Part shown: one piece after another, positions 4,291-6,499 of the stretch | How the letters are laid out: every line of letters starts with the position of its first letter | Position numbering within the stretch: the first letter of the stretch is position 1 | Origin: Eledone cirrhosa | Taxonomy: Eukaryota | Direction: 5' to 3' | NCBI GenBank assembly: GCA_964016885.1 | Contig: OZ024751.1 | Coordinates: 27,776,001 to 27,840,000 of the forward strand | Length of the DNA stretch: 64,000 bases | The notes under the pieces: model-generated | Databases searched by the model: none | What the model saw: the letters and a program-made list of their open reading frames with translations, nothing else | Told to the model about the DNA's origin: nothing | Made by a program: the position numbers and the translations under genes

Positions 4291-4809
4291 TAACATTTTT
4301 TTTTTTAGAGAAGGGCCTCAGCAGGTGAAACTCCTGCACTGAATGTAGTGGGTGTTTAAACCAGGTATCAGGATCTATTTCTTATATCGTTAATAGTCAT
4401 TTCTGTCTGTTACTCTACTCAATGTTAATACTTTAAATCTTATTCTTGTGGAAATAACATCTATCTATCTACCTACTTCTGTATGTATAGGTGCAGGCAT
4501 GTTTGTGTGGGTAAGCAATTCGCTTAAACATGTAGTTTCGAGTTCAGTTTCACAAGCTTCACGTTGACCAATGCATTCAGTGCATGTAATTTGGAAAATA
4601 TGGATGCCCGTTATATATATATAAAACTCTCTTCTATTTTCTCCTAAGCTTGAAACTAATAAGACTGTTTTTGCATGTTTTTCTTGAAATATATATATAT
4701 ATATATATGTGTGTGTGTACGCGTGTGTAAATGAATTGCGTCGGAAAGGTCCAGGAAAAAAGAGTGCTCTATGTAGGTTACAGAGCTCAATAGTTATGTA
4801 AGGTAATTA

Positions 4810-4870
4810 TTTCATTTACCAGTGGTTTCTTGAAAGCAAACAAATTTTGCTTTCAATCATCAGAATGAAA
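4810..4870 (-). ncRNA. Type I hammerhead ribozyme (minus-strand copy)
   Basis: Exact reverse complement of 4919-4979. Confidence 0.8.
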
Positions 4871-4918
4871 AAATCCTGGTGTATTTATTGACATTGGATT
4901 TTAAATACACCAGGATTT

Positions 4919-4979
4919 TTTCATTCTGATGATTGAAAGCAAAATTTGTTTGCTTTCAAGAAACCACTGGTAAATGAAA
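4919..4979 (+). ncRNA. Type I hammerhead ribozyme
   Basis: Stem I TTTCATT/AATGAAA; core CTGATGA (4926-4932); 11-bp stem II TTGAAAGCAAA/TTTGCTTTCAA; GAAA (4960-4963); minimal stem III CCACTGG; GUA triplet with predicted cleavage after 4972. Confidence 0.8.
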
Positions 4980-5019
4980 TAATTACCTTATGTTGTTTAT
5001 TACATAACTATATATATAT

Positions 5020-5075
5020 AGTTCTTGTCTGATGACCCTGTGATAAACAAGCGAAACTCTTGAGTAACATGACTC
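5020..5075 (+). ncRNA. Degenerate type I hammerhead ribozyme (different family)
   Basis: TTGT-CTGATGA-ccctgtgataaacaagc-GAAA-CTCTTGAG-TA-ACA: both core boxes and stem III are present, stem II is partly mismatched. Confidence 0.6.
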
Positions 5076-5106
5076 TCTTTTTAGCCTTTATATATACACA
5101 CACACA

Positions 5107-5185
5107 CAGGGTGTCCCCAAAACATATATACACTTCAACAGCATGCTAATAAATATTGCCTGTATACATTTTTGGGGACACCCTG
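5107..5185. mobile_element. Tc1/mariner-like micro-MITE
   Basis: 16-bp terminal inverted repeats CAGGGTGTCCCCAAAA/TTTTGGGGACACCCTG around a ~47-bp spacer; flanks are CA/TG rather than a clean TA duplication. Confidence 0.6.
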
Positions 5186-6499
5186 TGTGTCGTTAAATAA
5201 GTAGCAAACTTTTGAAAAATTAATCCTAGAGACGATATGACCGACTGACTCTCGTGAAAGTGGTGCTCCAGCATGATCGCACTCTAGTGACTGAAACCAG
5301 CAAAAGAATTTAAAAAATTGCACACACAAACACGTGTGTGTTGAGAAAGGTATCGGTATATTTTATGTAACAATGTCAACAAGCCCTGCACTGTTTTATT
5401 TTATTGACGTCTTGACTCGGTTTCGTCAAAGGACATGCTGCAATATGTCATCAGACGTGTATCGATATATCGATGTGTGTGCTATTGAATAATTACTGCA
5501 TATTTTAGTAGAGTGATATGTGTATGTATGTATATATAATATTTATTTTTTGGGGGAAAAGAGACTTTAAAGTTTAATTGTTTTTTCTAAGAGTATCGAT
5601 CGTGAATCGATTTCATATATATACATGTTTGCACTTTTACCTGTGGCCATGCTGAAGCACCGCCATTATATAACATTTTCGATTAATGCCTTATAAATAA
5701 TATTAATTAATAAGTCAGGGTGGGGGGATTCCACAAACACTGATTATGCATTCTTAGATGTCAACCAAGGGTCAGTATATTTATACACACACTAATATAT
5801 ATATATAGAGAGAGGGAGATCATATCAGAAACAGATGAAATGATAATGACAAAACAATTGGAACATTTAACCCCATTATACTACCACCACCACCACCACC
5901 ACTGCTATTACTACTATCATTATTGTTAATACTGCTACTACATTGACCTCAATATGTCTATTGTGTTCCTTACGTAGGTGTGTGTGTGCCTGCACTTGGA
6001 CACTGCAGGGTGTTTATTTTGTACATGTTTTGTTTATATATATATCATGATCAGTTTCTCGAAGTTGCCCTCTGCCTTTTCTTTCAATATATACAAAGAT
6101 TTTAATTTAATTTAATATATATACATATTTTAAATTACTCGAGAAACCCTTGTTGTTTTTAGTTCACTGTATGGTGTGGTGTGGAATTAAAAAATTATGT
6201 CACTGAAGTGTGAACTAATTATGAACAGCCGGGTGTAATATACATGTGTACAAGTTCAAATTTACGCTAACGAAGATTTTTCATATTGTATATAACAGTG
6301 GAGCGGCATTTATCAAATGACAATGCATTTTATACAATAAATATATCACTATTATAGATTCCATTATCCTATTCAGCAATGTATATAACACACTAGTTAG
6401 TTTATTTTTGTTAATTTTTCCAAAAATTATTACAGTTGTGTGTGTGTTCCCCGTTGTAATATGTATTGTGAATTTTTCTTTTTGACACATTATTATTAT

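Follow-up and report, generated by a model that had tools for sequence, protein, structure and literature searches.

A probable head-to-head pair of Penelope-like element 3' ends, each with a predicted type I hammerhead ribozyme, in the genome of Eledone cirrhosa

Introduction

Inverted, 5'-truncated copies with a tail on one side only are described as standard among Penelope-like elements (PLEs) (PMC8557442, PMC3846280), and the head-to-head form is given as the commonest of the inverted arrangements (PMC3846280). Pairs of hammerhead ribozymes on opposite strands, 100–700 bp apart, have been tied to truncated PLEs, and cleavage of PLE hammerheads as dimers has been published (PMC4209133), dimer cleavage and low activity also being covered in a review (PMC6765202). 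In vitro, a PLE protein was found to extend both target strands, with two RT start sites that bound the tail (PMC11167929). Very short de novo PLE insertions at microsatellites have been described in Chlamydomonas (PMC9977147), and active PLE families have been listed in an octopus, the part of that report which lists them making no mention of ribozymes (PMC13282606). The way in which inverted repeats of PLEs arise, and the function of the hammerheads, are regarded as open questions (PMC8557442, PMC11167929).

The present study concerns a palindrome within a 64,000-nt stretch of Eledone cirrhosa DNA (contig OZ024751.1 of assembly GCA_964016885.1, positions 27,776,001 to 27,840,000), the whole of which is referred to as the window and supplies all coordinates unless stated otherwise. 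The assembly, of 3.0 Gb, is rich in microsatellites and fragments of retroelement ORFs. The palindrome is very probably a head-to-head pair of PLE 3'-end (pseudo-LTR, pLTR) fragments lying in (TA)n, each with a predicted type I hammerhead, and likely arose in a single recent insertion. Taken alone the locus is minor, being one young copy among hundreds with a structure already described for PLEs.

Structure of the locus

A first-pass annotation of the window had reported a perfect palindrome, and the inverted repeat at 4799–4887 and 4902–4990 does have arms of 89 nt that are 100% complementary, with zero mismatches and 14 nt between them. While these perfect arms stand, the element had been drawn too small: the insertion spans 4730–5010, and both its PLE origin and its tail had been missed. 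The paired arms reach outwards to 4791 on the left and 5010 on the right, the left arm having a 12-nt deletion at 4799/4800, just outside the perfect stretch, and only the left arm continues into a tail, of 61 nt. Positions along the arms are given relative to a core anchor, at 4922 and its mirror. The features are as follows.

4689–4729, no strand: (TA)n/(TG)n microsatellite, left flank
4730–4790, minus strand: putative PLE tail, corresponding to the start of the element's 5' UTR, which precedes the ORF in tandem copies (same sequence in loci L149, L156, L162, L164 and L167)
4791–4905, minus strand: tailed pLTR arm, its 5' truncation lying 38 nt upstream of the core anchor, with the 12-nt deletion at 4799/4800
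4810–4870, minus strand: type I hammerhead motif, mirror copy, with a predicted site at 4817 (by symmetry)
4888–4905, no strand: head-to-head junction, consisting of 14 nt of the tailed arm and then a 4-nt microhomology (4902–4905) common to both arms
4902–5010, plus strand: tail-less pLTR arm, its 5' truncation lying 20 nt upstream of the core anchor and ending at the family's tail boundary
4919–4979, plus strand: type I hammerhead motif, with predicted cleavage 3' of A4972 (motif, predicted fold and family conservation)
5011–5020, no strand: (TA)n target microsatellite, right flank

As both flanks are microsatellite, a target-site duplication cannot be discerned.

Other repeats occur in the window. 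Close by, at 5102–5190, lies a small MITE-like element whose ends form a perfect 21-nt inverted repeat separated by 47 nt; CA/TG repeats flank it, and it is present in high copy in the reads. LINE RT fragments were found at 22730–29300 and 32500–33200, and at 60512–60633 on the plus strand a 5S rRNA-like sequence (62.8 bits) in which several pairs are disrupted, probably a pseudogene or a 5S-derived repeat.

The hammerhead motif and its predicted folding

The plus-strand arm carries the type I hammerhead core (CUGANGA, GAAA and UH) with three stems. Stem I is of 7 bp (4919–4925/4973–4979), CUGAUGA lies at 4926–4932 and GAAA at 4960–4963, stem II is of 11 bp (4933–4943/4949–4959) and closed by U-A, stem III has 3 bp and a 3-nt loop, and A17 of the GUA site is 4972. 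The anatomy first proposed, and a site after A4972, are thus supported by motif and predicted fold. Rfam searches gave no hammerhead match at any threshold (gathering or E-value), and because of this the ribozyme call rests on the motif, the predicted fold and conservation within the family; some Rfam miRNA matches fell below the gathering score and merely reflect the long hairpin.

Conservation was assessed in 70 units from 37 loci that had been picked without using the ribozyme sequence. Core positions were kept in 65–70 of the 70, except for positions 7 and 17, the former varying freely (U in 33, G in 21 and A in 16). Three common stem changes preserve pairing through G-U wobble, and position 10.8 of stem II is mismatched in 12 of the 70 units. 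The U-A pair closing stem II had been remarked upon as a departure from the usual G-C; it is present, but as a family trait and not a peculiarity of the locus, since U10.1-A11.1 was found in all 70 units and G10.1-C11.1 in none.

For a 71-nt monomer (4915–4985) the predicted MFE structure is the active fold, at -14.3 kcal/mol and with a stem III probability of about 0.5, and for the whole right arm the active fold lies 2.1 kcal/mol above the predicted MFE. Stem III is near-palindromic and is predicted to form an 8-bp intermolecular duplex of -8.2 kcal/mol. Dimer cleavage of the plus-arm hammerhead is accordingly plausible on these predictions, although the dependence on a dimer that had been suggested is not forced, the monomer MFE being active. 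In the full palindrome the picture changes: the hairpin is predicted at -140.8 kcal/mol, and the active fold lies 77.4 kcal/mol above the MFE, in keeping with the earlier expectation that the two would compete.

Transcription reading through from either side would reach the antisense arm before the sense one, and the orphan ribozymes are accordingly predicted to be inactive. The hairpin would thus likely silence the predicted ribozyme, as a by-product. A purpose-built off-switch, as once envisaged, is not supported: junctions differ between copies and the layout is that of an ordinary PLE inverted insertion; with hundreds of similar pairs in the genome, an ordinary by-product of insertion is likelier than a special switch.

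Two further hammerhead-like cores, degenerate and belonging to other repeat families, occur within 500 bp, at 5020–5067 (plus strand) and about 5405–5460 (minus strand). Neither folds as a hammerhead in its MFE structure, and the sequence at 5020–5061 is itself repeated.

A genome-wide repeat family

An exact search with a 23-nt core pattern gave 1362 matches in the genome, against none for the reversed pattern used as control, and in a genome search the 40 candidates that were scored, out of 1268, were all full-length palindromes. Pairs with the two cores 30–90 nt apart in head-to-head orientation number at least 227. By sequence, then, the arms are copies of a repeat and not a chance occurrence.

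Pairs were surveyed in three sets, namely one chosen by BLAST (39), one found with the palindrome pattern (35) and 81 loci drawn from the first 100 listed matches to the core. Twelve duplicate fetches were dropped, and the 155 loci gave 101 distinct pairs. The first two sets over-represent young copies and ends near -40, while the 81-locus set is free of that bias but is biased towards an exact core.

With its small size, AT-richness, long inverted repeats, TA-flanked position and copies in the hundreds, the palindrome could be taken for a MITE or foldback DNA transposon, transposing as one invariant unit in which the hammerhead is incidental. This reading is very improbable and already largely refuted, since the ends are asymmetric (one-sided tail) and the centre varies between copies, where a symmetric, fixed TIR would be looked for. 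Moreover, only 27 of the 81 loci are short head-to-head pairs; the other 54 are not, 29 of the 55 unpaired copies run at least 105 nt upstream into a common microsatellite-rich region, and the unit is linked to a PLE ORF (see below).

It is scarcely credible that the palindrome was created in assembly, from fold-back chimeric reads. The arms are perfect, and no read or contig from four runs spans the junction, though the reads pile up from many family copies and are uninformative on that point. Against such an artefact, the two arms differ by the tail and the 12-nt deletion, and the same layout recurs at 227 loci with differing junctions, a one-tail rule and a mean arm divergence of 2.6–4.8%.

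A second head-to-head, hammerhead-like palindrome, of a different family and adjoining a (TA)n tract, is present in the window at 19150–19270. Its pattern, with 5–35 nt between the cores, occurs at 2068 loci genome-wide. Thousands of such hairpins, from the two families, could in principle supply this genome with dsRNA.

The parent element

Judged from sequence context, the arm is the 3' end, or pLTR, of a PLE. The association was examined in both directions. Forwards, 30 loci were picked by a 3'UTR motif, with 1.5 kb of flank only, and the end of an ORF was found in sense upstream of the motif in nine. In reverse, starting from 20 of 150 scored matches to the C-terminal (endonuclease) region of the ORF (10 with long frames and 10 top-scoring), a hammerhead unit lay in sense downstream at 19 of the 20 loci, and an inverted copy upstream at 15. 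A tandem pLTR precedes the ORF in L156, L162, L164 and L167. In these and in L149, an extension of about 65 nt after the hammerhead unit continues straight into the 5' UTR of the ORF, and it is for this reason identified with the PLE tail. Other-family PLE ORFs near some copies (L047, L049, L057, L066 and the long ORF of L065) were set aside, the cross-locus test having favoured the L061-type ORF.

The longest natural frame, in L149, is of 711 aa and has 871 homologues. Its predicted fold (pLDDT 93.3, from a 110-row alignment) gave ten best Foldseek matches that were all telomerases, with E-values of 2e-8 to 8e-7 and TM-scores of only about 0.3, and on these best matches the ORF is read as a telomerase-like RT. 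Pfam searches of ORF pieces, the L149 ORF and five homologues returned nothing meaningful, and neither sequence nor profile searches of the PDB with the L149 ORF gave a match. In the ORF, RT motifs and what is taken to be a cysteine-rich linker between RT and endonuclease were recognised, and the C-terminal VVY...YVG and Cys/His motifs may represent a GIY-YIG-like endonuclease; no GIY-YIG domain was matched in Pfam or appeared among the listed fold matches to the whole ORF. Elsewhere in the window, at about 37150–37820, another fragment adjoins a very long (TA)n tract and, from its YRDD motif, is taken to be a Penelope-like RT.

The parent 3'UTR is 1.5–2.5 kb long and rich in microsatellites. 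In the family pLTR (around 1400–1430 in L031–L033), a splice-acceptor-like polypyrimidine tract ending in CAG lies about 75 nt upstream of the hammerhead; in the Drosophila virilis PLE, pLTR introns are described as ending near the hammerhead (PMC4209133).

Coding copies often have a second, internal hammerhead, some 0.4 kb beyond the ORF and more than 1 kb before the terminal one. In L149 the internal unit is at 4993–5113 of the oriented locus, 1336 nt from the terminal hammerhead. By hand count, position 17 is G in 21 of 24 internal hammerheads (L149–L168) and A in 45 of 46 terminal ones, whereas the near-palindromic stem III is the same in both. Under the NUH rule, G17 makes a poor hammerhead cleavage site. 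The combination suggests a cis dimer that is cut once, although the internal hammerhead may instead be decaying. Neither this PLE family nor a G17 internal copy was found in searches of the Penelope/hammerhead and octopus hammerhead literature; Repbase or the supplements of PMC4209133 and PMC8557442 may list them.

One tail per pair, arm concordance and age

Exactly one arm is tailed in 94 of the 101 pairs, with two tails in three and none in four. Arm ends are precise, 79 of the 94 one-tail pairs having an arm that ends at the tail-boundary reference position of the window copy (5010), and a TA or CA repeat abuts 88 of the 94 tail-less and 83 of the 94 tailed arms. At seven polymorphisms of the family the two arms of a pair agreed 556 times and differed 37 times, against 210 differences expected were they independent, and a single polymorphic site contributed 19 of the 37. 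Together, the one-tail rule and this concordance indicate that both arms likely came from one source at insertion.

Divergence between arms could be measured in 97 pairs, four with fewer than 60 comparable sites being excluded, and averaged 2.7%, 4.8% and 2.6% in the three sets. The window copy is young, as first supposed, with no mismatch at 96 paired sites, and 11 of the 97 measurable pairs have equally perfect arms. The alternative then offered, that the arms had been homogenised, is contradicted by the family: rare variants were found on one arm only in 81 cases and on both in five.

The same evidence bears on whether the palindrome could be a selected host regulator, acting as a ribozyme off-switch or an siRNA/ADAR hairpin, with its arms kept identical by homogenisation. 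Such a role might be read from the very stable predicted hairpin and from the two rare substitutions in the unpaired 61-nt tail against none in the 96 paired sites, although these are too few events to weigh, and small RNAs of PLEs have been reported in rotifers. Across the family, rare-variant density differs little between the two, at 1.2% per site in the tail and about 1.0% per arm in the paired regions. Apart from the one-arm bias of the rare variants and the equally perfect pairs elsewhere, the 12-nt deletion in one arm has been left unrepaired, and the ORF listing showed no long host ORF near the palindrome (a search of ORFs only). Host regulation is, on this evidence, highly unlikely.

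Junctions and a proposed insertion mechanism

Junctions were analysed in 70 pairs, giving 69 after exclusion of one without an anchor. That of the window copy is a 4-nt overlap, and overlaps of at least 4 nt were seen in 16 of 36 insert-free junctions, compared with 3.3% in the null. In 12 of the 69 the overlap is of 7–10 nt and falls, without a loop, on a T/A octamer that is self-complementary. Inserted or unassignable bases were scored in 33 of the 69, though divergence inflates this class.

Of 52 arm ends in the 81-locus set, 17 lie within a 7-nt interval 37–43 nt upstream of the core anchor, with seven further upstream and 28 downstream, and six of 55 unpaired copies also end there. Nine pairs, from all sets, have both ends at 37–43 nt with inserted bases between. 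Such pairs hint at the 5' end of a template rather than at microhomology alone.

It is likely that the PLE RT-endonuclease nicks both strands of a TA repeat, and that RNA from a single source element then serves as template for two cDNAs, the first primed where the tail ends distally and the second at its near end. Both would terminate prematurely, a short way upstream of the hammerhead, and a few paired bases (four at this locus) would join them through their 3' ends, so that both cDNAs, each begun at its own boundary of the tail, enter in one insertion event. Having been copied from the RNA of a single element, the arms would be identical at birth and would thereafter drift apart neutrally. 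The hammerhead would serve the parent element, probably by processing its RNA as a tandem dimer, whereas in an orphan pair a read-through transcript would be expected to form the long hairpin. Such two-primer joining fits the in vitro extension from two start sites (PMC11167929).

The second arm could instead have been made by self-priming, or fold-back, of one strand of the same PLE, which is how palindromes of head-to-head PLEs have been interpreted in print (PMC3846280), with the tail boundary coming from endonuclease resolution, to which the tail is ascribed in PMC8557442. Fold-back accounts for arm concordance and for the short junction microhomologies. It predicts, however, that the tailed arm should extend further 5', and among the 94 one-tail pairs the tailed arm was the longer in 29 and the tail-less in 27 (of the 93 that could be called), the two being within 2 nt in 37, with no call in one. 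The loopless octamer overlaps also fit the annealing of two strands. Later deletions at the palindrome centre could blur the arm-length test and erase the signature of fold-back, so two-primer joining is only inferred and fold-back is retained as a rival, albeit a somewhat doubtful one.

Returning to two-primer joining, a wider reading would have the palindromes record the PLE insertion reaction and the internal G17 hammerhead act as a non-cleavable dimer partner. Priming by a dimeric RT-endonuclease would take place on both target strands, at the pair of start sites bounding the tail; the template would be a short pLTR RNA with its 5' end about 40 nt upstream of the hammerhead; the two run-off cDNAs would be joined head-to-head; and the G17 partner would give a cis dimer that is cut once, at the terminal pLTR. 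As a whole this is offered tentatively, and it may well prove wrong. Whichever course is followed, any mechanism of PLE insertion has to accommodate four observations, namely the one-tail rule, the concordance between arms, the clustering of 5' ends, and the absence of a bias towards either arm being the longer.

Comparison with known elements

The locus is a real, recent and ordinary inverted micro-insertion of a PLE. Head-to-head pLTRs, one-sided tails and opposite-strand hammerhead pairs are already published. As in the inverted-pLTR insertions described for EN+ PLEs (Arkhipova 2013, PMC3846280; Craig 2021, PMC8557442), there are head-to-head pLTRs, one tail and an overlap at the junction, and also a pLTR hammerhead, (TA)n targets and a telomerase-like RT ORF with a putative C-terminal endonuclease region. 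Unlike the insertions presented there, both halves are here cut back to the pLTR only. The tail is of 61 nt (about 65 nt in the family) compared with the 30–40 nt given for published PLEs, and the parent differs from published EN+ PLEs in its long, microsatellite-rich 3'UTR, often with a second hammerhead inside it. The putative C-terminal endonuclease region, the cysteine-rich linker and (TA)n targeting recall the Neptune and Nematis clades, although the linker is only suggestive of clade, being CxC-x5-C here and CX2-5CxxC as given for Neptune/Nematis (PMC8557442).

The predicted ribozymes resemble the minimal hammerheads described from PLEs (Cervera and de la Pena 2014, PMC4209133) in being of type I, with a long stem II and a short palindromic stem III, and in forming opposite-strand pairs tied to truncated PLEs. 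They differ from those in the U10.1-A11.1 pair, where G-C is described as highly conserved, in lacking a bulged base between positions 9 and 10.1, and in their 7-bp stem I and 11-bp, AU-rich stem II. Metazoan non-LTR retrozymes (bioRxiv 10.64898/2026.07.22.740005) are likewise described as non-coding, PLE-related and provided with type I hammerheads. Those are head-to-tail tandems that can yield circular RNA, whereas the palindrome is a single head-to-head pair, an arrangement that can give no two-ribozyme transcript.
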